Below are positions 1-38,158 of a stretch of DNA of 64,000 nucleotides, one piece after another (the first letter of the stretch is position 1; each line of letters opens with the position of its first letter). A program made the translations under genes and the position numbers. The DNA comes from Squalus acanthias (taxonomy: Eukaryota): contig CM059432.1 in assembly GCA_030390025.1 (NCBI GenBank), forward strand, positions 34,288,001-34,352,000, given 5' to 3'. A model generated the notes under the pieces. It did no database searches, was not told where the DNA came from, and saw nothing but the letters and a program-made list of their open reading frames with translations.

Positions 1-221
1 CTCCTTTGATGTGGTTGACTCTAAACCATGTGCTACACTAACGTCAGTGACTGGGTGCAACATGAGTGTATTAGGTTTGATGAAAGACAAAGAGACCTGA
101 TGAATACTGTAGCTCAGTGAGGCTGTAATTCTTTACCGGATTGCCAGGAAATACACGACGACGAACCATAAAATCTGGACTATCGGTCGCAAAGGTGTAT
201 TAGTCACACATTTGAACCAAT

Positions 222-572
222 GAGTCAGAGCATGTGAGTTCAAATCCCATTGTGGCAGTTTGAGAATTTGATTTCAGATTTTAAAAGTCTGAAAATGAAA
301 TAAAAGTGACCATGAAGCTGTCGGATTGTCGTAAAAACCTTTCACTAATGTCCTTTAGGGAAGGACACCTGACTTCCTTACCCAGTCTGGCCGATATGTG
401 ACTCCAGTCCCACATCAAAGTGGTTGACTCTTAAATGCCCCCTGATGTTGGCCTAGCAAGCCACTCAGTTGTAAGAAGGAGGCCCACCGCCATCTTCTGA
501 GGGCAACTAGGGATGGGCAATAAATGCCAGCCTTTCCAGTGAGGCCCTCATCCCAAGAATGAATTAAAAAAA
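222..572 (+). mobile_element. Short SINE-like derivative of family A (B-box, central body, family A LINE 3' tail)
   Basis: GAGTTCAAATCC B-box; body 'ttcactaatgtcctttagggaagga...ggcctagcaagccactcagttgta' matches the family A 5' UTR and joins directly to the tail 'agggcaactagggatgggcaataaatgcc...gaattaaaaaaa'. Confidence 0.8.
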
Positions 573-1057: not shown

Positions 1058-4000
1058 TTTTTTTTATTCGTTCATGGGATGTGGGCGTCGCTGGCAAGGC
1101 CAGCATTTTATTGCCAATCCCTAGTTGCTCTTGAGAAGGTGGTGGTGAGCGGCCTTCTTGAACCGCTGCAGTCCGTGTGGTGAAGGTACTCCCACAGTGC
1201 TGTTAGGGAGGCAGTTCCAGGATTTTGACCCAGCGACGATGAAGGAACGGCGATATATTTCCAAGTCAGAATGGTGTGTGACTTGGAGGGGAACTTGCAG
1301 GTGGTGGTGTTCCCATGCGCCTGCTGCCCTTGTCCTTCTAGGTGGTAGAGGTCACGGGTTTGGGAGGTACTGCCGAAGAAGCCTTGGTGAGTTGCTGCAG
1401 CGCATCTTATAGATGGTACACACTGCAGCCACGGTAAGCCGGTAGTGGAGGTTTAAGGTGGGGGATGGGATGCCAATCAAATGAGCTGCTTTGTCCAGGA
1501 TGGTATCAAGCTTCTTGAGTGTTGTTGGAGCTGCACTCATCCAGGTAAGTGGAGAGTATTCCATCACACTCCTGACTTGTGCCTTGTAGATGGTGGAAAG
1601 GCTTTGGGGAGTCAGGATGTGAGACACTCGCCACAGAATACCCATCCACTGACCTGCTCTTGTTGCCACAGTATTTATGTGGCTGGTCCAGTTAAGTTTC
1701 TGGTCAACAGTGACCCCCAGGATATTGATGGTGGGGGATTCGGTGATGGTAATGCCGTTGAATGTCAAGGGGTGGTGGTTAGATGCTCGCTTGTTGGAGA
1801 TAGTCATTGCCTGGGACTTGTGTGGCGTGAATGTTACCAGCCACTTATCAGCCCAAGTCTGAATGTTGTCAAGGTCTTGCTGCATGTGGGCATGGACTGC
1901 TTCATTATTTGAGGAGTTGCGAATGGAACTGAACATGGTGCAGTCATCAGCGAACATCCCCACTTCTGACTTTATGATGGAGGGAAGGTCATTGATGAAG
2001 CAGCTGAAGATGGTTGGGCCTAGGACACTGCCCTGAGGAACAGCTGCAGCGATGTCCTGGGGCTGTGATGATTGACCTCCAGCCACCACAACCATCTTCC
2101 TTTGTGCTAGGTATGACTCCAGCCAGTGGAGAGTTTTCCCTCTGATTCACATTGACTTCAGTTTTATTAGGGCTCCTTGATGTCATATTCGGTCAAATGC
2201 TGCCTTGATGTCAAGGGCAGTCACTCTCATCTCACCTCTGGAATTCAGCTCCTTTGTCCATGTTTGGACCAAGGCTGTAATGAGGTCTGGAGCCGAGTGG
2301 TCCTGGTGGAACCCAAACTGGGCATCAGTGAGCAGGTTATTGGTGAGTAAGTGCTGCTTGATAGCACTGTCGATGACACCTTCCATCACTTTGCTGATGA
2401 TTGAGAGCAGACTGATGGGATGCTGGTTGGTCGGATCGGATTTGTCCTGCTTTTTGTGGAAAGGACATACCTGGGCAGTTTTCCACATTGTCGGATAGAT
2501 GCCAGTGTTATTGTTGTACTGGAACAGCTTGGCTAGAGGCACAGCTAGTTCTGGAGCACAAATCTTCAGCATGACAGCCGGGATGTTGTCGGGGCCCATA
2601 GTCTTTGCTGTATCCAGTGCGCTCAGCCGTTTCTTGATATCACGTGGAGTGAATCGAATTGGCTGAAGACTGGCTTCTGTAGTGGTGGGTACCTGAGGAG
2701 GAGGCCGATATGGATCATCCACTCGGCACTTCTGGCTGAAGATGGTTGCAAACGCTTCAGCTTTGTCTTTTGCACTCACATGCTGGGCTCCACCATTATT
2801 GAGGATGGGGATATTCATGGAGCCTCCTCCTCCCGTTAGTAGTTTAATGGTCCACCACCATTCACGACTGGATGTAGCAGGACTGCAGAGCTTTGATCTG
2901 ATCCGTTGATTGTGGTATCACTTATAAACTCTTTCTATAGCATGCTGCTTCCACTTTTTAGCATGCATGTAGTTCTGTGTTGCAACTTCCCCAGGTTGGC
3001 ACCGCATTTTTAGGTACGCCTGGTGCTGCTCCTGGCATGCTCATCTACACTCCTCATTGAACCAGGGTTGGTCACCTGGCTTGATGGTAATGGTAGAGTG
3101 AGGGATATGCCGGGCCATGAGGTTACAGATTGTGGTGGAATACAATTCTGCTGCTGCTGATGGCCCACAGCGCCTCATGGATGCCCAGTTTTGAGTTGCT
3201 AGATCTGTTCTGAATCTATCCCATTTAGCACGGTGGTAGTGCCACACAACACGATGGAGGGTGTCCTCAGTGTGAAGACGAGATTTCGTCTTCACAATGA
3301 TTGTGCAGTGGTCACTGCTACCAATGCTGTCATGGATAGATAGATTGGTGAGGACAAGGTCAAGTAGGTTGTTCCCTCGTGTTGGTTCTCTCACCACCTG
3401 TCGCACCAGACTGGCAGCTATGTGCTCCAGGACTCGGCCAGTAGTGGTGCTACCGAGCCACTCTTGGTAATGGACATTGAAGTTGCCCACCCAGAGTACA
3501 TTCTGTGCCCTTGCTACTCTCAGTGCTTCTTCCAAATGGTATTCAACATGGAGGAGTACTGATTCATCAGCTGAGGGAGGGCAGTAGGTGGTAATCAGCA
3601 GGAGGTTTACTTGCCCATGCTTGATATGAGACTTCATGGGATCCGGAGTCAATGTTGAGCACTCCCAGGGCCACTCCTTCCCAACTGTCTACCACTGTGC
3701 CGCCACCCCTGACAGGACAGACCCAGGGATGGTGATGGAGGAGTTTGGGACATTGGCTGAAAGGTATGATTCTGTGAGTATGACTATGTCAGGCTGTTGC
3801 TTGACTAGTCTGTGGGATGGTTCTCCCAATTTTGGCAGAAGTCCCCAGATGTTGGTGAGGATGACTTTGCAGGGTTGACTGGGCTAGGTGTGCCATTGTC
3901 ATGTCTTTAGCCGGTGCCGATGCCGAGGTCAATGCCGGGTGGTCCGTCCGGTTTATTCTTATTGCTTTTCGTAGCTTTTTTTACAACTGAGCTTGCTAGG

Positions 4001-4281
4001 CCATTTCAGAGGGCAGTTAAGAGTCAACCACATTGCTGTGGGTCTGGAGCCACATATAGGCCAAACCAGGTAAAGATGACAGATTTCCTTCCCTAAAGGA
4101 CATTAGTGAACCAGATGGGTTTTTACAACAATCCGATAGTTACCATATTCCAGATTTATTTTATTAACTGAATTTAAATTCCCCAGCTGCCGTGGTGGGA
4201 TTTGAACTCATGTCTACTGGATCATTAGTCCAGGCCTTTGGATTACTAGTCCAGTAACATAACCACTATGCTACTGTTTCC
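1058..4281 (-). mobile_element. Family A LINE, full-length decayed copy 1 (tRNA-like head + APE endonuclease + RT, no ORF1; CR1-group)
   Basis: EN motifs TNIWGL, GNFNVH, LLDLVLTN, SDH; RT motifs ALDIKAAFD, PQGSVLGP, FADD; A8 tail at 1058-1065; splits a Penelope-derived fragment (1021-1057 / 4282-4480). Confidence 0.93.
4198..4273 (-). promoter_or_regulatory. Pol III type-2 internal promoter of family A copy 1
   Basis: A-box TAGCATAGTGG (4273-4263) fits TRGCNNARYGG; B-box GAGTTCAAATCC (4209-4198). Confidence 0.85.
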
Positions 4282-4765
4282 ATCATGGTAATGGGTGAAT
4301 AAAGAAAAAAAAGATGGGTCCAGAGGAGCTGTAAATGGCAATAGTAGAATCATTACCAGCGCCTGCTCTCCGAAAAAATTGGAGCAGTGGTTATGAACTG
4401 AAGTTGTTGAACTCACTGTTGAGGCCGGAAGGTTGTAAAGTGTCTAATTGAGCTTGCATTGAGCTTCATTGGAACAGTGTTTTCAGCCTCCTACACTGTT
4501 CCACTGTTTCTTTATTGTCCCATTATCACCCCCTTTTGCCTTGCACCATCATCCCTTTTGTCATTTAATCACGCCTGCCCTCCACCCTATCACAGACCTT
4601 CCTCTTGTTCTTTCCTCCCCCCACCACACCTTTTTTCCTTGGCTCTTTATTTGCTTATAAACTGTTAAATCTCTAACTTCTTCCAGTTCTGATGAAAGGT
4701 CATCTGTTTCTCTCTTCACAGATGCTGCCTGACCTGCTGAGTGTTTCCAGCATTTTCAGTTTTCA
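4282..4765. mobile_element. Penelope-like element remnant: inverted 3' ORF end (4282-4480, minus) and pseudo-LTR tail (4481-4765, plus)
   Basis: Minus strand encodes ...TLQPSGLNSEFNNF (end of a PLE ORF); plus part ends with 'ctgatgaaaggtca...agatgctgcctgacctgctgagt', also seen at 8560-8660. Confidence 0.65.
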
Positions 4766-5028
4766 TTCACCATTGCATCCGTGAAGTGGGCGCTTAAATA
4801 ATCAAGATGAAATTGCATCATGGGGGTCCGCATCATGCCCACTCACGCGCAGTGGAGACGCGAAACCCAGAAGTAAACTGAAAATGAGACATCCCTGTTG
4901 AAATCAGACATTCCCATGCACCCACGATCTTGCGTGTTTGTCGCCCGCTATTCCCCCGCCCCCCACTCCTGCAAATCCCTCCCCCCCACCCCCGCTCAGG
5001 TCCCGTCTCTACGTTACTATTGAGTCCA

Positions 5029-5322
5029 TTGGAGACACCAGCGGTGGCGGAGCATGAAACAGCGGCGACCTGATTGGAGACACCAGCGGCGGCGGAGCAT
5101 GAAACAGCGGCGACCTGATTGGAGACACCAGCGGCGGCGGAACATGAAACAGCGGCGACCTGATTGGAGACACCAGCGGCGGCGGAGCATGAAACAGCGC
5201 CGACCTGATTGGAGACACCAGCGGCGGTGGAGCATGAAACAGCGCCGACCTGATTGGAGACACCAGCGGCGGTGGAGCATGAAACAGCGGCGACCTGATT
5301 GGAGACACCAGCGGCGGTGGAA
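5029..5322 (+). repeat. 45-bp tandem repeat (about 6.5 copies) at the 5' end of a CR1 element
   Basis: Unit ttggagacaccagcggcggcggagcatgaaacagcggcgacctga, starts at 5029, 5074 etc. Confidence 0.95.
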
Positions 5323-5554
5323 CCCAAAAAATTAAGAGTGACATCACAGGACAGCAGGTAGGTGATTGGTTGGTGTGTATTAAGGTTTTTTTTTCTCTCT
5401 AACCTAGGACAGTGATTTAAACTAGGACCAGGAAACTATGACGTACTGTATTAAATTTATAGCTTAACTAGTTAACCTATTTAATATAACTATAAATAAT
5501 CATTGAATAAAGACTTTAACTAACTAAATAAATAAAATAAGGCGAGACTAAGAT

Positions 5555-6443
5555 ATGGCAGGGCAGATTGTGTGTCTGGACTGCAGTATGTGGGAGTTTG
5601 TGGACGGTGAGACTGTCCCGAGCAAACATGTCTGCAGGAGATGTCTCCATCTCGAATCGCTCCGGCTCAGAGTCATTGAGCTGGAGTGCGAGTTGGAGAC
5701 ACTCCAACACTTAAGGGAGGGGGAGGAATTTCTGGACAGTTTTATCCAGAATACAATCACACCCCAGAGGAAAGCACAGGTTCAGGAATGGGAGGGTGTG
5801 ACTGTTCGGGAGCCGGGTAGCGGGGATTTACGAGAGGTTGAGAAGGAGATCCCGCAGACACTGGTCCTGTCCAACAGGTACGATGTACTCGCTACCTGTG
5901 AGGACAAAGAGAAAGACTGCAGGGAGGACAGCCACAATGCAGACCAAGGCACCATGGCTCGGAAGGCTGTCCAAGGGGGAAGAGCAGAATAGAAATGTGG
6001 TAGTAATAGGAGACTCTATAATTAGGGGGATCGATAGCGTCCTCTGCAGCCAGGAACAAGAATCCCGCAGGGTGTGTTGCCTACCCGGTGCCAGGGTAAG
6101 GAATATCTCACGGCAGCTGGAGAGGAACTTGGAAAGGGAGGGGATAAATCCAGTTGTCGTGGTCCATGTTGGAACAAACAACATAAGTAGGACCTCAAAG
6201 GTAATAACGTCTGGATTATTGCCCGAGCCACGTGCAAATTGGCATAGAAGCAGACAGATCAGGAGAATTAACACATGGCTAAAGGGCTGGTGTGGGAAAG
6301 AGGGGTTCCTTTTCATGGGACACTCGCAACAGTTCTGGGACAGGAAAGAGCTGTCCCGATGGGACGGGCTCCACCTGAACCAGGATGTGACCTGTGTCCT
6401 AGTGAAAAGGGTAAATAGGGAGGTGGCAAAGGCTTTAAACTAG
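5555..6443 (+). pseudogene. CR1 ORF1 remnant: Cys zinc finger/coiled coil + SGNH esterase
   Basis: CLDC..CRRC followed by a leucine-rich helix; GDSI, GARV, GTNN, DGLHLN blocks; frameshift near 5980. Confidence 0.88.
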
Positions 6444-6626
6444 TAAGAAGCGGGGAGGGATCTACAAGAAATGTAAGCAGTCTAAATATAAACAAAACAG
6501 GAAAAGTGAGCATAGGAAAGAATAAAGTAAGGGAGGACATTGACATCAAGGGAGCAAATACAGTTATAGAACAGGAGTCTAAAAAGATGGTTGAACATAA
6601 AGTGAGAGGAAATCCTATTAAAGATG

Positions 6627-9369
6627 AGTTAAACTGTCTGTACAGCAATGCACACAGTGTCCGTAATAAAACAGGGGAGATGGAGGCAATCATGCGTTGG
6701 GAGGAACCAGACATAGTAAGGATTACTAAGATATGGCTACAGAAAAATTAGGACTGGGAATTAAACACTGCAGAGTATAACATATTTAGAAAAGATAGAG
6801 AGGGAAAAAGGGGGAGGTGGAGTAGCTGTACTTATTAGGGATAACATAATGGCAGTAGAAAAAAGGGACGTAGATATCAGCAAGACAAAAATAGAATCCA
6901 TATGGATGGAGATAAAAGATAATAAAGGATCAATCACACTAATAGGGGTAGTCTACAGACCACCTAATAGTGGAAGGGAGGTGGAGGAAGAAATATGCAG
7001 ACAAATTAGAGAAATTAGTAAAAAACATAGAATAATAATCATGGGGGATTTCAACTACACCGATATTAATTGGACAGAAGAGTTGGTAAAGGGGATAAGG
7101 GAATGGAGTTCCTACAATGTCTACAGGACTCCTTTCTAACCCAATATGTAAAAAGCCCAACAAGGGAGGATTCACTATTGGATCTAGTAATGGGGAATGA
7201 GCCAGAGCAGATAAGAGAAGTAAATTTAGGGGAGCATATAGGCAATAGTGACTGTAATATAATACGCTTTAAGATGATAATAGAGAAGGACATAAGTATG
7301 ACAAAAAACAGGTTAATAGATTGGAGAAAAGCTGATTTTGAGGGGCTGAGAATAGAACTTGGGAAGATAAAATGAGCAACAATATTGGCAAACAACGATG
7401 TAGAATGACAATGGGAAAAATTTAAAACGGTGTTCAACAGAGTGCAGAAAAAATATATTCCGCTAAAAGGAAAGAACAAACTAAACACTAATGAGACTCC
7501 ATGGATGAACAAAGACATAATTGAGGGTAAGGAAAGGGGCATACATTAAGTACATAGACAGCAGAGGAGTGCATGAAAAAGAAAAAATACGAAGGGATTA
7601 GGAGAGAAGTCAAAAAAACAATTAGGAAGGCAAAGAGGAACTATGAAATTAAATTATCAAGGAATAAAACAAAATAGTAAAATATTTTACAGGCACATCA
7701 ATAAAAAAAGGACGGTTGTGATGGGAATAGGGCTATTAAGGGATAGACAGGACAATACCACAGGTAACGATCGGGAGATGGCAGAAATATTAAATCATAA
7801 TTTTGCTTCTGTATTTACCAGGGAGATGACATTGATGATGAGATGAGATGAGTAATGTGATAATTGCATTTAAAGTTTTAAAAAGTGGATATATTAAATA
7901 AACTAATCAAACTCAGAGGATAAAAACCCCTAGTCCAGATAGATTGTATCCACGCATTTTAAAAGAATCTAGGGAAGGAATAGCAGAGGCATTACTACAC
8001 ATATTTAATAATTCATTAGAAAAAGGTGTAGTGCCAGAGGACTGGTGGATAGCTAATGTAATACCGATATTTAAGAAGGGGGATAGAACATGTCCAGGGA
8101 ATTATAGACCAGTCAGCTTAACATCGGTGGTAGGAAAATAATGGAATCCCTACTAAAGGAGAAAATAGAAGAACATCTAGAAACAAAAAGTATAATAATG
8201 AATAGTCAGCATGGATTTCAAAAGGGAAAATCTTGCTTGACCAACCTTATTGAATTTTTTGAAGCGGTAACAGAGAGAGTAGACAATGGTAATGCAGTAG
8301 ATGTAATTTATCTAGATTTTCAAAAGACCTTCGATAAGGTACCCCAAAATAGACTAATGAATAAGGTCAGAGAATGCAGAGTCAGGGGACAAGTAGCAGA
8401 ATGGATTGCTAGCTGGCTTCAAGACAGAAAGCAGAGAGTGGGAGTAAAGGTAAGCTATTCATAGTGGCAGAAGGTGGGTAGTGGTGTTCCACAAGGATCA
8501 GTGCTGGGACCACTGCTGTTCACAATTTACATGAACAATTTAGACAACTGGAAACTCTTTCCAGTTCTGACGAAAGGTCATCGACCTGAAACGTTAACTC
8601 TGTTTCTCTCTTCACAGATGCTGCCTGACCTGCTGAGTATCTCCAGCATTTTCTGTTTTTAAATGTGAAGTATTACAGTTTGGTAGGAAGAATAGGGAGG
8701 TCACTTATCACTTGGAGGGTGCGAGTCTAGGTGGGGCAGAGGAACAAAGGGATCTCGGAGTATAAATACACAAAACACTAAAAGTTGTGTCACAGGTTAG
8801 CAAGGCCATAAAAAAAGCAAACGAAGCACTAGGGTTTATTTCTAGAGGGATAGAATTGAAAAGTAGGGAAGTTATGCTAAACCTGTATTGAACCTTGGTT
8901 AGACCACACTTAAGAGTACTGCATACAGTTCTGGTCGCGGTATTATAAAAAGGATATAGAGGCACTGGAGAGGTTGCAGAGAAGATTTACAAGGACGATA
9001 CCAGGAATGCGAGGGTATACATATCAGGAAAAGATGAACAGGCTGGGTCTCTTTTCTATTGAAAAAAGAATGCTGAGGGGTGACCTAATAGAGGTCTTTA
9101 AAATTATGAGAGGTTTTGATAGAGTGGATACAGAGAGAATGTTTCCACTTGTGGGGAAGAGCATAACTAGAGGCCATCAATATAAGATAGTCACCAAGAA
9201 ATCCAATAGGGAATTCAGAAGAAACTTCTTTACCCAAAGAGTGGTGAGAATTTGGAACTCATTACCACAGGGAGAGGTTGAAGCAAATAGTATAGATGCA
9301 TTTAAGGGGAGGTTAGACAAGCATATGAGGGAGAAGGGATTAGAGGGTTACACTGATAGATTTAGATGA
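6627..9369 (+). pseudogene. CR1 ORF2 remnant (APE + RT), multiple stops and frameshifts
   Basis: CLYSNAHS, GDFNY, LLDLVMGN, NYRPVSLTS, QHGF, DFQKTFDKV, PQGSVLGP; FADD region lost at the 8546-8660 insertion. Confidence 0.9.
8546..8660 (+). mobile_element. Penelope-derived short insertion with a minimal hammerhead-like motif
   Basis: AGTT-CTGACGA-A-AGGTC-atc-GACCT-GAAACGTT-AACT at 8563-8599; 9-bp foldback AACTGGAAA/TTTCCAGTT at the 5' end. Confidence 0.7.
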
Positions 9370-9624
9370 GGAAAGACGGGAGGAGGCTCGAGTGGAGCAT
9401 AAATGCCGGCATGGACTGGTTGGGCCGAATGGCCTGTTTCTGTGCCGTATATCCTATGTAATCCATTGTTTTGCATTCAGGAGGTGATTTTCCTCCTCAC
9501 CACCTGAGCAGTGACCTGGCGTAACAGACTGCTCACCGTTGTAGAACCCATCCAATGTCCATTCGAATGGGATAATAATCGGGTAATCCACTCAGCCAGA
9601 TTCCCTTGCAGGCGGTGATGGTGA

Positions 9625-9845
9625 AAGTTTAGCAAATATATATTCACTTCCATTTTTAAAGTTACTATTGAATCTGCTTCTCGCACCCTTTCAGGTAATG
9701 CTTTCCAGATCATAGCAACTTGTTGTGTAAAAAAATTCTCCTCATCTGCCCTCTGGTACATTTGCCAATTATCTGTGTCCTCTGGTTACCAACCCACCCG
9801 CCAGTGAAAACAGTTTCTCCTTGTTTACACGATCAAAACCCCCCA
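9625..9845 (-). mobile_element. Old CR1 3' fragment
   Basis: NFFTQQVAMIWKALPERV peptide. Confidence 0.75.
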
Positions 9846-9920
9846 TATTCTGTATTCGGCCATGTTATAGCTGGCGTGGGCAAGCTATTGGGTGTCAGAA
9901 GTCTTTCATTTCCCAATATA

Positions 9921-12900
9921 GGGAACGGTAGCATAGTGGTTATGTTATTGGACGAGTAATACCAGAAGCCTGAATAATCCGGTAGATGTGAGTTCAAATC
10001 CCACCACGGCAGCTATGGTATTTTAAATTAGTTAATTAAATAAATCTTGACTTGGATTGTTGTAAAAACCCACCTTTTGGTTTCACTAACGTCCTTTAGG
10101 GTAGGAAATCTGCTGTCTTTACCTGGTCTGGCCTATATGTGACAGCAATGTGGTTGATTCTTAACTGCCCTCTAAAATGGCCTAGCAAGCCACTGAGTTG
10201 TACACAACCACTACGAAAAACAATAATAAGAATAAAACCGGACATACCTCGGCACCGGCTTCGGATATGACAACGGCAGACCCAGGCCAGTCGACCCTGC
10301 AAAGTCCTCCACACCAACATCTGGGGACTTGTGCCAAAATTGGGAGAGCTGACTCACAGACTAGTCAAGCAACAGCCTGACATAGTCATACTCACAGAAT
10401 CTAACCTTCAGCCAATGTCCCAAACTCCTCCATCACCATCCCTGGGTATGTCCTGTCCCACCGGCAGGACCGACCAACCAGAGGTGGTGGCACAATGGTA
10501 TACAGTCGGAAAGGAGTGGCCCTGAGAGTCCTTAACATTGACTCTGGACCCCATGAAGTCTCATGGGTTCAGGTCAAGCATGGGCAAGGAAACCTCCTAC
10601 TGATTACCACCTACCGCCCTCCCTCAGCTGATGAATCAGTACTCCTCCATGTTGAACACCACTTGGAAAAAGCACCGAGGGAAGCAAGGGCACAGAATTT
10701 ACTCTGGGTGGGGGACTTCAATGTCCATCACCAAGAGTGGCTCGGTAGCACCACTACTGACCGAGCTGGCCGAGTCCTGAAGGATATAGCTGCCAGACTG
10801 GGCCTGTGGCAGGTGGTGAGAGAACCAGCACGAGGGGAAAAACCTACTTGACCTCGTCCTCACCAATCTACCTGTCACAGATGCATCTGTCCCTGACAGC
10901 ATTGGTAGCAGTGACCACCGCACAATCCTTGTGGAGATGAAATCCCGCCTTCAGACTGAGGACACCCTCCATCGTGTTGTGTGGCACTACCACCGTGCTA
11001 AATGGGATAGATTCAGAACAGATCTAGGCACTGTGGGCCATCAGCAGCAGCAGAATTATATTCCACCACAATCTGTGACCTCATGGCCCGGCATATTCCT
11101 CACTCTACCATTACCATCAAGCCAGGGGACCAACCCTGGTTCAATGAGGAGTGCAGAAGAGCATACCAGGAGCAGCATCAGGCATATCTACAAATGAGGT
11201 GCCAACCTGGGGAAGCTGCAACACAGGACTACATGCATGCTAAACAGCGGAAGCAGCATGCTATAGACAGAGCTAAGCAAGCCCACAATCAACGGATCAG
11301 ATCAAAGCTCTGCAGTCCTGCCACATCCAGTCGTGAATGGTGGTGGACAATTAAACAACTAATGGGAGAAGGAGGCTCCATGAATATCCCCATCCTGAAT
11401 GATGACAGAGCCCAGCATGTGAGTGCAAAAGACAAGGCTGAAGTGTTTGCAACCATCTTCAGCCAGAAGTGCCGAGTGGATGATCCATATCGACCTCCTC
11501 CTGAGGTCCTCACCATCACAGAAGCCAGTGTTCAGCCAATTCGATTCACTCCACGTGATATCAAGAAACGGCTGAGCGCACTGGATACAGCAAAGGCTAC
11601 GGGCCCCGACAACATCCCGGCTATCGTGCTGAAGGCTTATGCTCCAGAACTAGCTGTGCCTCTAGCCAAGCTGTTCCAGTACAGCTACAACACTGGCATC
11701 TACCTGACATAACTGCCCAGGTATGTCCTGTCCAAAAAAAGCTGGACAAATCCGATCTAGCCAATTACCGCCCCATCAGTCTACTCTCAATCATCAGTAA
11801 AGTGATGGAAGGTGTCATTGACAGTGCTATCAAGCGACACTTACTCACCAATAACCTGCTCACCGATGCCCTGTTTGGGTTCCGCCAGGACCACTCGGCT
11901 CCAGACCTCATTACAGCCGTGGTCCAAACATGGACAAAAGAGTTGAATTCCAGAGGTGAGGTGAGAGTGACTGCCCTTGACATCAAGGCAGCATTTGACC
12001 GAGTGTGGCATCAAGGAGCCCTAGTAAAACTGAAGTCAATGGGAATCGGGGGGAAAGTCTCCACTGGCTGCAGTCATACCGAGCACAAAGGAAGATGGTT
12101 GCAGTTGTTGGAGGTCAATCATCACAGCCCCAGGACATTGCTGCAGGAGTTCATCAGGGCAGTGTCCTAGGCCCAACCATCTTCAGCTGCTTCATCAATG
12201 ACCTTCCCTCCATCATAAGGTCAGAAGTGGGGATGTTCGCTGATGATTGCACAGTGTTCAGTTCCATTCGCAACTCCTCAGATAATGAAGCAGTCCATGC
12301 CCGAATGCAGCAAGACCTGGATGACATTCAGGCTTGGGCTGATAACTGGCAGGTAACATTCATGCCACAAAAGTGCCAGGCAATGACTATCTCCAACAAG
12401 TAAGAGTCTAACCACCACCCCTTGACATTCAACGGCATTACCATCGCTGAGTCCCCCACCATCAACATCCTTGGGGTCACCATTGACCAAAAACTTAACT
12501 GGACCAGCCACATAAATACTGTGTCGACAAGAGCAGGTCAGAGGCTGGGTATTCTGCGGCGAGTGTCTCACCTCCTGATTCCACAAAGCCTTTCCACCAT
12601 CTACAAGGTACAAGTAAGGAGTGTGATGGAATACTCTCCACTTGCCTGGATGAGTGCAGCTCCAACAACACTCAAGAAGCTCAACACCATCCAGGACAAA
12701 GCAGCCCGCTTGATTGGCACCCCATTCACCACCTTAAACATTCACTCCCTGCACCACCAGGGTACCGTGGCTGCAGTGTGTACCATCTACAAGATGCACT
12801 GCAGCAACTTGCCAAGGCTTCTTCGGCAGCACCTCCCAAGCCCGCGACCTCAACCACCTAGAAGGACAAGGGCAGCAGGCGCACGGGAAGACCATCACCT

Positions 12901-13137
12901 GCAAGTTCCCCTCCAAGTTACACACCATCCTGACATGGAAATATATCACCGTTCCTTCATCGCCGCTGGGTCAAAATCCTGGAACTCCCTCCCTAACAGC
13001 ACTGTGGGAGTACCTTCACTACAAGGACTGCAGCGGTTTAAGAAGGCAGCTCACCACCACCTTCTCAAGGGCAATTAGGGATGGGCAATAAATGCTGGCC
13101 TTACCAGCAACGCCCACATCCCAGGAACAAGTAAAAA
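9921..13137 (+). mobile_element. Family A LINE, full-length decayed copy 2
   Basis: Same head, body, EN (GDFNVH, SDH), RT (QGSVLGP, FADD) and tail as copy 1; same length, about 3.2 kb. Confidence 0.93.
9929..10001 (+). promoter_or_regulatory. Pol III A-box/B-box of family A copy 2
   Basis: TAGCATAGTGG 9929-9939; GAGTTCAAATCC 9990-10001. Confidence 0.85.
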
Positions 13138-27097: not shown

Positions 27098-27512
27098 ATA
27101 GTGTTGTGGTTATGTTACTGGACTAGTAATTCAGAGGATGTGAGTTCAAATACCACCATGACAGATTGATCATTTCAATTCAGTTTTTAAAAATCTAGAA
27201 CTAAAAAGCTGACATCAGTAAAAGTGACCATGAAACTGCCGGTCACTTTAGTCATAAAAACCCAACTGGTTTACGAATGTACTTTAAGAAAGGAAACCTG
27301 CTGTCCTTACCCAGTCTGGCCTATATGTGACTCCAATCCACACTAACATAGTTGACTCTTAACTGCCCTGTGAAATGGCCTAGCAAGCCACACAGTTGTA
27401 TCAAAACTGCTACTATACTGGAACTTCATACCAAGCAGCACTGTGGGAGCACCTTCACCATATGGATTGCAGCGGTTAGAAGGTCCACTACCATGTTCTC
27501 AAGGCAACTAGG
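27098..27512 (+). mobile_element. SINE-like derivative of family A with a longer 3' segment
   Basis: gtggttatgttactggactagtaa head, B-box, body, then cagcactgtgggagcaccttcacc...aaggcaactaggga from the LINE 3' end. Confidence 0.8.
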
Positions 27513-27844
27513 GAGAATCCTACTTATAAGCCTACTTAAACTAACAATATTATGGACATACAAACTAGGAGCCTAAAAGGTTCACTGGGCCCAAAATGTC
27601 CATCACTTTTAAATAGATCAGACACACCCAGGTCAGGTAACAACAGAGGGCAGACTGGCCCTATCAGGAGATTTCCTGAGTGCCCCCGTAAATGGTTTCA
27701 TAGCACTGTATTATTGTCCCCCTCCCTTTTTCCAAGAGAATCCCCCATTATACAATTACTTTTCTGTTGTTTGATTTTTTTTTAACCCAAGGTAGGGGAT
27801 GTCGATGCTGGCTTGTGGAATTTTTCTACCTTCTGCACCCAGTG

Positions 27845-33535: not shown

Positions 33536-35220
33536 TTTTTTTTTAATTCGTTCCTGGGATGTGGGTATCGCTGGCAAGGCCAGCATTTATTGCCCATTCC
33601 TAGTTGCCCTTGAGAAGGTGGTGGTGAAATGCCTTCTTAAACTGTTGCAGTCCGTGTGGTGAAGGTACTCCCACAGTACTAATAGGGAGGAAGTTCCAGG
33701 ATTTTGACCCAGTGACGATGAAGGAACGGCAATATACTTCCAAGTTAGGATGGTGTGTAACTTGGAAGAGAATTTGGAGGTGGTGGTGCTCCCATGCGCC
33801 TGCTGCCCTTGTCCTTCTAGGTGGTAGAAGTCATGGGTGTGGGAGGTGCTCCCGGAGAAGCCTTGGCAAGTTGCTGCAGTGCATCTTGAAGATGGTACAC
33901 ACTGCAGCCACGGTACGCTGATGGTGGAGGGAGTGAATGTTTAAGGTGGTGGATGGGGTGCCAATCAAGCGGGCTGCTTTGTCCTGGATGGTGTTGAGCT
34001 TCTTGAGTGTTGTTGGAGCTGCACTCATCCAGGCAAATGGAGAGTATTCCATCACACTCCTGACCCACTGGAATTCAGCTCTTTCGTCCATGTTTGGACC
34101 AAGGCTGTAATGAGGTCTGGAGCCGAGTGGTCCTGGCGGAACCCAAATTGGGCATCAGTGAGCATGTTATTAGTGAGTAAGTGCTGCTTGATAGCACTGT
34201 CGATGACACCTTCCATCACTTTGCTGATGATTGAGTGTAGACTGATGGTGCGGTAATTTTCCGGATTGGATTTGTCCTGCTTTTTGTGGACAAGACATAC
34301 CTAGGCAGTTTTCCACATTGTTGGGTATGCCAGTGTTGTAGCTGTACTGGAACAGCTTGGCTAGAGGCACAGCTAGTTCTGGAGCACAAGTCTTCAGCAC
34401 GATATCCGGGATGTTGTCGGGGTCCACAGCCTTTGCTGTATCCAGTGCGCTCAGCCATTTCTTGATATCACGTGGAGTGAATCGAATTGGCTGAAAACTG
34501 GCTTCTGTGAAGGTGGGGACCTCAGAAGGAGGCCGATATGGAAAATCTACTCGGCACTTTTGGCTGAAGATGGTTGCAAACGCTTCAGCCTTGTCTTTTG
34601 CACTCACGTGCTGGGCTCCACCATCATTGAGGATGGGGATATTCATGGAGCCTCCTCCTCCCGTTAGTTGTTTAATTGTCCACCACCATTCATGACTGGT
34701 TGTGGCAGGACTGCAGAGCTTTGATCTGATCTATTGATTGTGGGATCGCTTATCCCTGTCTATAGCATGCTGCTTCCGCTTTTTAGCATGCATGTAGTCC
34801 TGTGTTGCAGCTTCCCCAGGTTGGCACCGCATTTTTAGATATGCCTGGTGCTGCTCCTGGCATGCTCTTCTACACTCCTTATTGAACCAGGGTTGGTCCT
34901 CTGGCTTGGTGGTAATGGTAGAGTGAGAGATATGCCAGGCCATGAGGTTACAGATTGTGGTGAATACAATTCTGCTGCTGCTGTTGGCCCACAGCGCCTC
35001 ATGGATGCCCAATTTTGAGCTGCTAGATCTGTTCTGAATCTATCCCAATTTGCACGGTGGTAGTGCCACACAACACAATGGAGGGTGTCCTCAGTGTGAA
35101 GACGGGACTTCGTCTTCACAATGACTGTGCGGTGGTCACTGCTACCAATGCTGTCATGGACAGATGCATTTGCAACAGGTAAATTGGTGTGAAAGAGGTC
35201 AAGTAGGTTTTTCCCTCGTG
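33536..35220 (-). mobile_element. Family A LINE, 5'-truncated with an internal deletion of the RT core
   Basis: SDH to 3' tail; junction near 34065 skips from ELNS to VRSVMEY. Confidence 0.9.
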
Positions 35221-36022: not shown

Positions 36023-38158
36023 GAGTGACTGCCCTTGACACCAAGGCAGCATTTGACCGAGTGTGGCATCAAGGAGCCCTAATAATATTGAAGTCAATGG
36101 GAATCAGGGGGAAAAGTCTCCACTGGCTGGAGTCATACCTAGCACAAAGGAAGATGGTTGTGGTTGTTAGAGGTCAATCATCTCAGCCCCAGGACATTGC
36201 TGCAGGTGTCCCTCAGGGCAGTGTCCTGGGCCCAACCATCTTCTGCTGCTTCATCAATGACCTACCCTCCAACTTTGAGGTGCCTGCTGTACATGGTCCA
36301 TGTCTCTTAGGCATACAGCAGGGCGGGTATCACTGCTGCTCTGTAGACCATGAGATTAGTGCTGGGTTTGAGGTACTGGTCTTCAAACACTCTCTTCCTC
36401 AGGCGACCGAAGGTTGCACTGGCACACTGAAGGCAGTGTTGGACTTCGTCGTCGACGTTTGCCCTTGTTGACAGTAGGCTCCCGAGGTATGGAAAGTGGT
36501 CCACGTTGTCCAAGGCCTTGTCGTGGATTTGATAATCGGGGGGCAGTACTGTGTGGCAGGGGCAGGTTGGTAGAGGACCTTTGTCTTACGGATGTTTAGT
36601 GTAAGGCCCATGCTCTCAGAGACATGGACCATGTACAGCAGGCACCTCAAAGCACTGGAGAGGTACCACCAACGCTGCCTCCGCAAGATCCTGCAAATCC
36701 ATTGGCAGGATAGACGCACCAACGTCAGTGTTCTTGCTCAGGCCAACATCCCCAGCATCGAAGCTTTGACCACGCTCGATCAGCTCCGATGGATGGGTCA
36801 CATTGTCCGCATGCCTGATACGAGACTCCCAAAACAAGCACTCTACTCGGAGCTCCGGCATGGCAAGAGAGCCCCAGGTGGGCAGAGGAAATGCTTCAAG
36901 GACACCCTCAAAGCCTCCTTGAAAAAGTGTAACATCCCCACCGACACCTGGGAATCCCTGGCCCAAGACCGCACAAAGTGGAGGAGAAGCATCCGGGAAG
37001 GCGCCGAACACCTCGAGTCTCTTCGCCGGGAGCAAGCAGAAGCCAAGCGCAGGCAGCGCAAGGAGCGCACGTCAACCCAAGCACCCCACCCACCTGCTCC
37101 TTCAACCACCGTCTGCCCCACCTGTGACAGAGACTGTAGGTCCCGCATTGGACTCATCAGTCACCTGCAAACTCATTTTTAATGTGGAAGCAAGTCATCC
37201 TCGGTTCCGAGGGACTGTCTAAGAAGAAGAAGAAGACCCTCCATCATAAGGTCAGAAGTGGGGATGTTCGGTGATGATTGCACAGTGTTCAGTTCCATTC
37301 GCAAATCCTCAGATAATGAAGCAGTGCAGCAAGACCTGGACGACATTCAGGCTTGGGCTGATAAGTGGCAAGTACAATCTCGCCACACCAGTGCCAGGCA
37401 TTGACTATCTCCAACAAGCGAGAGTTTAACCACCACCCCTTGACATTCAATGGCATTACCATCGCCGAATCCCCCAACATCAACATCCTGGGGTCACCAT
37501 TGACCAGAAACTTAACTGGACCAGCCACATAAATACTGTGGCAACAAGAGCAGGTCAGAGGCTAGGTATTCTGCGGTGAGTGTCTCACCTCCTGACTCCC
37601 CAAAGCCTTTCTACCATCTACAAGGCACAAGTAAGGAGTGTGATGGAATACTCTCCAATTGCCTCAATGAGTGCAGCTCCAACAACACTCAAGAAGCTCG
37701 ATACCATACAGGGCAAAGCAGCCTGCTTGATTGGCACCCCATCCACCACCTTAAACATTCACTCCCTCCACCACCGGCGTACCGTGGCTGCAGTGTGTAC
37801 CATCTACAAGATGCACTGCAGCAACTCGCCAATGCTTCTTCGGCAGCACCTCCCAAACCCACGACCTCTTCCACCTAGAAGGACAAGGGCAGCAGGCGCA
37901 TGGGAACACAACCACCTGCAAATTCCCTTTCAAGTCACACACCATCCTGACTTGGAAATATATCACCGTTCCTTCATCGTCGCTGGGTCAAAATCCTGGA
38001 ACTCCCTCCCTAACAGCACTGTGGGAGTACCTTCACCACACGACTGCAGCGGTTCAAGGTGGCGGCTCACCACCACCTTCTCAAGGGCAATTAGGGATTG
38101 GCAATAAATGCTGGCCTTGTCAGCAACGCCCACACCCCCAGAACGAATAATAAAAAAA
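36023..38158 (+). mobile_element. Family A LINE, 5'-truncated, interrupted by an RTE element
   Basis: TALDTKAAFDRVWH, PQGSVLGP; resumes at 37236 and runs to the A-rich tail. Confidence 0.9.
36272..37235 (+). mobile_element. RTE-clade LINE fragment with an inverted 5' segment
   Basis: FPYLGS, QLRWMGHIVRMPDTRLPKQALYSEL, C-terminal CxxC..H; (AAG)n tail; 8-bp TSD accctcca (36264-36271, 37236-37243). Confidence 0.9.

Follow-up and report, generated by a model that had tools for sequence, protein, structure and literature searches.

The window analysed here is a stretch of 64,000 nucleotides (nt) of the dogfish Squalus acanthias (assembly GCA_030390025.1, contig CM059432.1, positions 34,288,001 to 34,352,000 of the forward strand), and it holds two copies of a long interspersed nuclear element (LINE) that begins in the manner of a short interspersed nuclear element (SINE), with a head derived from a transfer RNA (tRNA). 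Copy 2 (9921-13137, plus strand) and copy 1 (4281-1061, minus strand) are 86.6% identical over 3300 columns when aligned by BLAST within the window. In both the parts follow one order, namely A box, B box, body, A-rich stretch, endonuclease, reverse transcriptase (RT), C-terminal region, stop, 3' untranslated region (UTR) and A-rich end. The original prediction of two ~3.2-kb copies at these places, sharing one architecture, is thus confirmed by the BLAST alignment, the box positions and the Pfam matches. The open reading frames (ORFs) of both are disrupted by several frameshifts and stops, and the copies are dead insertions of one single-ORF LINE of 3.2-3.3 kb encoding an endonuclease and an RT, which we assign below to elasmobranch Zenon.

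Both copies open with GG(G/A)AAC(G/A)GTAGCATAGTGG, inside which the A box lies. The A box TAGCATAGTGG occupies 9929-9939 in copy 2 and 4273-4263 in copy 1, and the B box GAGTTCAAATCC stands ~50 nt past it, at 9990-10001 and 4209-4198, respectively. In copy 2 the tRNA-derived head spans 9921..10012 (plus strand; first element base 9921), comprises two anticodon-arm-like units and was delimited from the sequence and the Rfam tRNA model; in copy 1 it spans 4187..4281 (minus strand; first base 4281) and is preceded by six non-element bases, CATGAT. Between the B box and the ORF both copies have a body of ~200-230 nt. That of copy 2 (10013..10212, plus) completes the 5' UTR, which is made up wholly of head and body, and recurs in the short derivatives and in the Zenon consensuses of five elasmobranchs discussed below, although copy 2 lacks ~50 nt near 10054 that are present in most copies. 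In copy 1 the remainder of the 5' UTR, as read from the sequence, lies at 3973..4186 (minus). The decayed ORF of copy 2, recognized by Pfam and by its surviving pieces, covers the endonuclease, the RT and the C-terminal region (10213..13078, plus), with ACG at the homologous start and a stop at 13076-13078, and the ORF of copy 1 (1121..3972, minus) runs from an ACG at 3972-3970 to a TAG stop at 1123-1121 through several deletions and stops. The endonuclease motif LTNIWGL followed by the RT is found in both (Pfam Exo_endo_phos_2, Exo_endo_phos and RVT_1), as is a 3' UTR of 60 nt with AATAAA and a hairpin before the A-rich end. This region lies at 13079..13137 (plus) in copy 2, with AATAAA, a GCTGGCC…GCCAGC hairpin and a short A-rich end, and, together with the A tail, at 1058..1120 (minus) in copy 1, where it was placed from the sequence and a listing of 3' ends.

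Copy 1 interrupts another repeat. Its flanks, …ttctttattcacccattac on one side and cacccctttttgccttccaccatcatccc… on the other, run unbroken in an unsplit inverted paralogue at about 4519..4600, which was read from the sequence and serves as a stand-in for the empty site; the proposal that copy 1 splits a repeat therefore stands, as the paralogue reads through the insertion point without a break. The copy 1 insertion site lacks a target-site duplication (TSD).

The head of the element is truly tRNA-derived, an A/B-box module placed exactly at the 5' terminus. Against the Rfam tRNA model the heads of two sister copies reach 33.9 bits (L023) and 32.7 bits (L015), above its gathering score of 29, with the D, anticodon and T arms matched and the acceptor stem not, and on these scores we accept the earlier claim that the head, with its A and B boxes, comes from a tRNA. 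The copy 2 head reaches only 17.6 bits (E = 0.54), and across the whole window ARAGORN reported no tRNA and Rfam no match at the gathering score, because the heads of both copies are too decayed. Full-length elements begin at tRNA position +1 or -1, 8 nt upstream of the A box. Tandem anticodon-arm-like stem-loops occupy element positions ~28-70, two in most copies and one in a few, and at least two head subfamilies, …GGTTATGTTACTGGAC… and …GGTAATGTCACTGGGC…, can be told apart. The loops of the two stem-loops read CUAGUAA and CUAAUGA. A tRNA head with A and B boxes is what defines tRNA-derived SINEs (SINE2), which are also short and non-coding; the element is instead a 3.2-kb unit encoding an apurinic/apyrimidinic-type endonuclease (APE) and an RT, and it is its ~400-nt derivatives that are short and non-coding.

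Behind the head and body the ORF follows without an intervening segment. When the head-ORF boundary of 42 copies is aligned, the A-rich stretch proves to share the reading frame of the endonuclease (…T K N N N K N K T G R T T R H R P R H R L R T R Q R H T Q P S R P C K V L L T N I W G L) and aligns with the basic N-terminal extension of related proteins. One sister copy, L066, has a natural open frame of 368 amino acids (aa) that aligns to the proteins P0004 and P0002 from residue 9-12, 3-12 residues from their initiator Met; head and body are therefore the entire 5' UTR, with the ORF directly behind. What had been described as an A-rich linker is thus coding and supplies the first ORF codons (K N N N K N K T at 10216-10239 of the plus strand in copy 2, by alignment of the L066 N-terminus). 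Among the 150 best genome matches the longest true open frame has 815 aa (L064, P0001) against ~960 expected, and its matches are APE-RT proteins with a single ORF, 950-1050 aa long and 33-40% identical to it; few of the protein matches are named, and these include amphioxus, crab (crustacean) and butterfly. An open frame of 974 aa at C22 (L061) was considered as an intact ORF and rejected as spurious, as the LINE match ends well before the frame does; this frame (G000:C22:27810400-27815600) starts from a Zenon fragment and continues ~1.5 kb past the LINE match.

The dogfish genome (3.7 Gb, 3882 contigs) shows that copying and insertion, by way of RNA, take head, ORF and tail together as one unit, and that their union is neither a chance juxtaposition nor a local duplication. 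A search with the head-ORF junction returned 7595 candidates, 40 of which were scored; 20 of these span positions 1-9 to ~500, and the scored loci are distributed over many chromosomes. When copy 2 with 1.5 kb of its upstream flank was aligned to 29 other loci selected by the junction, similarity began within 9 nt of head base 1 in 20 loci and inside the head or body in the other nine, and upstream of the head there was none in any of the 29. Exact patterns gave the same picture, with 524 genome matches for the A box followed after 395-425 nt by CAACATCTGGGG and 391 for the body motif followed after 265-295 nt by the same endonuclease motif, against 0 for the reversed control in each case. An unbiased sample was drawn by the central ORF segment (116,047 candidates, 150 scored, 86-91% amino-acid identity), from which the 29 best loci were taken and two cut by contig ends were removed. 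Head sequence is present in 13 of the resulting 27 copies, while the remaining 14 have lost their 5' part, with breakpoints scattered from 160 to 972. The 13 head-bearing copies include seven that start at positions 1-12, four that start at 21-76 (one of them a full-length copy with a one-arm head) and two with internal rearrangements. None of the 27 has another shared 5' sequence or an ORF1 upstream. GG(G/A)NA(C/T) stands at the start of 21 of 29 head-reaching copies, and when the 345-nt upstream flanks of head-reaching copies were compared all against all, only six sporadic repeat matches were seen, at differing positions and strands.

These results bear directly on the original prediction. 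Insertion of head and ORF as one unit is upheld by the sharp 5' ends, the unrelated flanks, the 524 matches and the split repeat, and the lack of ORF1 by the 27 unbiased copies, none of which has upstream coding sequence. The observations that would have spoken against it, namely longer copies, an ORF1 or restriction to a few duplicated loci, were looked for and not found in the samples examined. The expected TSDs enclosing head plus ORF did not materialize, as none of 12 full-length copies examined has a clear TSD.

Judged by its sequence, the element is an elasmobranch Zenon LINE, a known published family. Zenon is described as a lineage of the CR1 group without ORF1 and with a poly-A tail (PMC13343379, Genome Biol Evol 2026). 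According to the same source, within the CR1 group it is the absence of ORF1 that defines the lineages Zenon and Rex1, the poly-A tail is said to be unique to Zenon in that group, Zenon occurs among vertebrates only in elasmobranchs, coelacanth and hagfish, and no elasmobranch Zenon is present in repeat repositories. The missing ORF1, treated in the original prediction as a special trait, is therefore normal for this lineage and for Rex1 (PMC13343379). Our element shares with the published elasmobranch Zenon its length of 3.2-3.3 kb, its single ORF with APE and RT, the lack of ORF1 and the poly-A, and nothing in the sequence compared sets it apart (PMC13343379); its ~300-nt 5' UTR runs straight into the ORF. 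A canonical CR1 would carry an esterase-type ORF1 and a 3' end other than poly-A, whereas here there is no ORF1 and an A tail: a run of ~4-11 A after …GAAT or …AAAT ends most of 12 copies, the exceptions being mixed A/T in L036 and L067 and an interrupted A run in copy 2 and L059. The RTE clade, considered for the 3.2-kb single-ORF size, was dropped after the match to a published Zenon consensus.

Supplementary Table 2 of that paper gives consensuses of 2886-3314 nt (SquAca_Zenon-1/2/3, CarCar_Zenon-1, RhiTyp_Zenon-1, ScyCan_Zenon-1 and HypSab_Zenon-1). The first ~400 nt of SquAca_Zenon-1 are, by eye, almost identical to the majority 5' UTR of this genome (PMC13343379). Over that same length a tRNA-like head stands at the start of all the listed consensuses of four sharks and one ray, followed by the same body. 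Their A boxes are TAGCGTAGTGG, TAGCATAGTGG, TGGCGTAGTGG, TGGCCTAGTGG or TGGCATAGTGG, of the general form T(A/G)GCNNAGTGG, and for the B box the three galeomorph sharks have GGTTCGAATCC, the dogfish GAGTTCAAATCC and the ray GAGTTGAATCC (PMC13343379). The hagfish and coelacanth Zenon consensuses begin with unrelated sequence (PMC13343379). The body (copy 2 ~10060-10205; from …GTAAAAACCCATCTGGTTCAC… to …CCACTCAGTTGTA) is nearly invariant by eye across the four shark consensuses and that of the ray, and whole elasmobranch Zenon consensuses are >84% identical (PMC13343379); the body thus seems, from these sequences, to be more conserved than the element as a whole, like the 'highly conserved domain' of SINE superfamilies.

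The tRNA-derived 5' end of elasmobranch Zenon appears to have gone unremarked so far. The word 'tRNA' is absent from the main text of PMC13343379, and 'tRNA', 'promoter' and 'Pol III' are absent from its supplement, and neither the head nor a link to SINE-like derivatives is described there. In our full-text literature searches no autonomous LINE was reported to have a tRNA-derived head; words from the element sequence occurred in no main text searched, and words from the body did not occur in the supplements of PMC11481361. In Supplementary Table 3 of PMC13343379 the top ORF2 lengths of the headed Zenons are 324-747 aa against ~960 expected, which would fit ORF callers that require an AUG. 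The same table gives the 'Proportion_of_intact_ORF2' of SquAca_Zenon-1 as 675852, probably a mangled fraction (PMC13343379).

The genome also holds short relatives of the element, of which 12 were examined (two from the window and ten fetched from the genome). In all 12 the 5' part ends at LINE position ~297-327, at or just inside the ORF start, and the 3' part runs from ~3054-3154 to the end, so that in each the final 60-180 nt of the LINE follow directly on its head and 5' UTR. All 12 are thus built from the two ends of the parent LINE only, as SIDEs or bipartite non-autonomous LINEs are, and at least eight different junction sequences occur among them. Four are of a younger type with the two-arm head of the LINE and tails 89-95% identical to it, and two of these (L069 and L072) keep the first ORF codons. 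The other eight are of an older type with a one-arm head and a T5 run ~35 nt past the B box (at least T4 in seven of the eight), the majority body of which is still ~92% identical to the LINE 5' UTR. In the LINE-type 5' UTR the T5 run (e.g., window 27170-27185) is replaced by TTAATTAAAT. Both window examples are of the older type and on the plus strand: one (190..572) has a decayed head with B box, a body corresponding to copy-1 positions 72-304 and a tail corresponding to 3123-3221, the last ~100 nt of the LINE, and the other (27098..27514), with another junction, runs through head and body to GCTAC just before the ORF start and is there joined to LINE ~3059-3164, from the last ~160 nt of the element. 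Contigs of four other organisms likewise contain the family and show several SINE-type joints, from ~10164-10203 to ~13028-13076.

Taken together, the short elements are most likely derivatives of the SIDE type, which would have arisen repeatedly from the headed LINE by internal deletion or template jump, and it is less likely that a separate SINE lent its head to the LINE. The closest parallel is Persaeus, which lepidopteran Zenon has generated by internal deletion at least four times (PMC6740152). Persaeus has the same build, LINE 5' UTR and ORF start joined to ORF end, 3' UTR and poly-A, and likewise has several independent origins and a partner from the Zenon clade. However, as described in that source, Persaeus and its Zenon are without similarity to tRNA, 5S or 7SL and without a Pol III promoter, whereas the shark LINE and its derivatives carry a tRNA head (PMC6740152). 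As both partners are tRNA-headed in sharks, the derivatives would pass as ordinary tRNA-SINEs. The pattern of the bipartite non-autonomous LINEs RIME/ingi and NARTc/L1Tc is matched by the shark short elements, and in SINEs that combine the two ends of a LINE with a tRNA head (Bov-tA/Bov-B, AfroSINE, WALLSI2 and others) this head likewise precedes sequence derived from a LINE 5' UTR (Kojima, 2018; PMC5786205). In the cases described there, however, only the SINE is headed and its autonomous LINE is not, while in shark Zenon the autonomous-type element itself is headed; in addition, the donors of 5' parts identified there come only from the RTE and Vingi clades, whereas here the donor is Zenon, of the CR1 group (PMC5786205). 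Among sharks and rays, the HE1/HER1 SINE/LINE pair and the dogfish DeuSINE SacSINE1 are tRNA-derived SINEs that have a 3' tail in common with a CR1-type LINE (PMC3747384; PMC4824008). For these only tail sharing is reported in the sources, and the comparison with the shark short elements is by description (PMC3747384; PMC4824008). Finally, U6-L1 template-switch chimeras also place sequence of a small Pol III RNA 5' of a LINE, but they are one-off, dead-end pseudogenes with variable junctions, while here one fixed junction is found in hundreds to thousands of copies and several species (PMC4476161).

We consider it highly probable that the window copies are ordinary dead insertions of elasmobranch Zenon, that the SINE-like, tRNA-headed 5' UTR is a trait of this family and that the short SINEs are its derivatives. 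The family 5' UTR consists, from the first base, of a ~95-nt tRNA-derived head and then a strongly conserved body of ~230 nt, with the ORF directly after, and head, ORF and tail travel together through an RNA intermediate. Internal deletion or template jump of the headed LINE would have given rise time and again to short tRNA-headed elements. Judging by the five species' consensuses (PMC13343379), the head would have been kept in the LINE lineage since before the split of sharks and rays, or would have spread among them. A local origin, in which a SINE was inserted or assembled beside a 5'-truncated LINE and then segmentally duplicated, might be suggested by the position of the two window copies, only 5.6 kb apart and in opposite orientation. 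Yet these are no closer to each other, at their 86.6%, than random family members are (82-88%), their flanks differ, and the same head-ORF junction recurs at no fewer than 524 loci on many chromosomes; the differing flanks, the sharp 5' ends and this number of loci refute such an artefact, to which we give practically no credence.

More substance attaches to recurrent chimera formation, in which the RT would reach the LINE 5' UTR and jump to the RNA of a SINE that shares its body, so that the source LINE was never headed. The ~230 nt of body common to the LINE and the short elements would favour such jumps, and the many junctions among the short elements show that the RT, or its RNA, recombines often. 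However, this predicts a common class of headless full-length copies starting at the body, and among the 27 unbiased and 29 junction-selected copies no such recurrent end was seen. Apparent clusters of 5' ends at 45-52 and 134-141 are alignment breaks or scattered truncations: the former arise in part because BLAST alignments break at a 20-nt repeat of the head, and the latter are truncations inside the stretch that copy 2 lacks. An alternative 5' UTR starting at positions 321-328 (L034, L041 and L043) was likewise set aside in favour of truncations, as the upstream flanks of L034 and L043 are mutually unrelated. The head subfamilies (GGTTATGTTACTGGAC and GGTAATGTCACTGGGC) move together with the LINE, and all five species' consensuses begin with the head (PMC13343379). 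Recurrent chimeras are therefore very unlikely to account for the head.

A number of points nevertheless weigh against the favoured reading. The 150 best matches include no intact copy, and for this reason autonomy is inferred from the family and not from a copy. The ORF start has no conserved AUG; the majority codon in the 42 aligned copies is ACG, with ATG and ACA minorities such as an ancestral ACG would be expected to yield by CpG decay, and the 5' UTR ahead of it contains four AUGs, which raises the question of how, or whether, the headed form is translated. The last of the upstream AUGs reads AUG-GCC-UAG and is in the ORF frame, and in one subfamily an out-of-frame AUG (…AAGAATGAAACC…) eight codons later opens an overlapping frame of 52 codons. 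The direction from LINE to short derivative is inferred only, and the older-type (T5, single-arm) 5' UTR followed by the endonuclease start gave no match, although with an exact 30-base pattern that is insensitive for old copies. The comparison with published Zenon consensuses covers the first ~400 nt only, and membership of Zenon rests on the classification in PMC13343379, reached through the near-identical 5' 400 nt and not through a tree of our own.

A further question is which polymerase reads the element. As a general objection to RNA polymerase III (Pol III), its natural transcripts are short, and uncapped RNAs are poorly translated. For Pol III to make the full-length coding RNA, transcription would start at head base 1, read through to a T run in the flank and yield an RNA translated without a cap. 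The A and B boxes agree with the consensus and persist in the consensuses of five species, whose neighbouring loop sequences vary (PMC13343379), and the first base of the element, 8 nt ahead of the A box, is placed where transcription from a type-2 promoter would begin. The lack of a conserved AUG and the four upstream AUGs would suit initiation without scanning. T runs also appear to be scarce. The majority-rule sense strand of 3300 nt has no run of T4 or more, against 16 of A4+, 11 of C4+ and 9 of G4+; 15 full-length copies have a mean of 2.07 T4+ runs, and the window copies have 0 and 2, as against ~5 predicted by base composition. An ORF1-bearing CR1-like LINE between the copies has 13 T4+ in 3.8 kb, and other LINE fragments are near expectation. 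Moreover, the LINE-type 5' UTR no longer has the T5 run that the older short derivatives carry.

None of this amounts to proof, as the T-run depletion fails the test against dinucleotide-preserving shuffles (mean 1.54; P(0) = 0.19), and the comparison with the other LINE involves single decayed copies. T3 runs are depleted too (7 vs. 45 for A), so the sense strand is simply T-poor. Two conserved AATAAA and the A tail at the 3' end fit cleavage and polyadenylation by RNA polymerase II (Pol II), and Zenon is described as poly-A tailed (PMC13343379). Furthermore, the older short derivatives multiplied despite a T5 run ~35 nt past the B box that should stop Pol III, and full-length Pol III transcription was therefore evidently unneeded or impossible for them. 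The absence of a T4 run from the ancestral sense strand would permit Pol III transcription of a 3.2-kb RNA; that Pol III actually makes the coding RNA is, in our view, unlikely. Only a little below an even call is that the head is a functional internal-promoter module which may recruit TFIIIC and the Pol III machinery, while the coding RNA would be made by Pol II. We see a smaller but real chance that the head mainly serves the short derivatives, or may be a neutral passenger. The most far-reaching version, an autonomous LINE lineage that would have used a tRNA-derived type-2 Pol III promoter since before the shark-ray split, with a cap-free start at ACG and deletions that gave a tRNA-SINE family, is more improbable still than Pol III synthesis of the coding RNA taken by itself.

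In the models of SINE origin given by Kojima (2018; PMC5786205), heads of the tRNA type belong to SINEs, which come about when such a head is fused with the tail of a LINE or with a LINE that has undergone deletion. Elasmobranch Zenon departs from these models in that an autonomous-type element is itself headed at its 5' terminus, in four sharks and a ray (PMC13343379). The new points are the conserved tRNA-derived head, a whole 5' UTR that resembles the head and body of a SINE, and the existence of matching SINEs that resemble deletion products. With 116,047 candidate ORF matches, the family is very abundant, and the origin of SINE heads and conserved bodies becomes testable in it; CR1-group elements make up 22-34% of the genomes concerned (PMC13343379). 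If the head is functional, the Pol III machinery would be at work in a coding retrotransposon, and if the Pol III reading is true, SINEs could be born complete from a LINE, head included, and a conserved SINE body could be a LINE 5' UTR. For annotation a warning follows, as repeat pipelines will split the headed elements into a 'SINE/tRNA' and a 5'-truncated 'LINE/CR1'.

Further repeats surround the two copies. Two more pieces of the same LINE were placed by BLAST with copy 2 as query: a 5'-truncated, internally deleted copy at 33540..35220 (minus strand; query 909-2036 and 2694-3217) and interrupted fragments at 36023..38153 (plus strand; query 2045-2292 and 2286-3217). They lie head to head, ~800 nt apart, and the former is without element positions 2037-2693. 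The other LINE between the Zenon copies (5552-9366, plus strand) encodes an endonuclease at 6765-7136 followed by an RT at 8108-8461, and the 13 T4+ runs counted above are those of its 3.8-kb sense strand. Ahead of the endonuclease one frame has a weak match to a GDSL-lipase/esterase (27.6 bits, below the cut-off of 32.9), and the whole resembles a canonical CR1/L2-type element whose ORF1 encodes an esterase. A 129-aa frame at 5012-5398 (minus strand) has a weak Pfam 'ORF29-like' match (28 bits against a cut-off of 27), which is probably noise.

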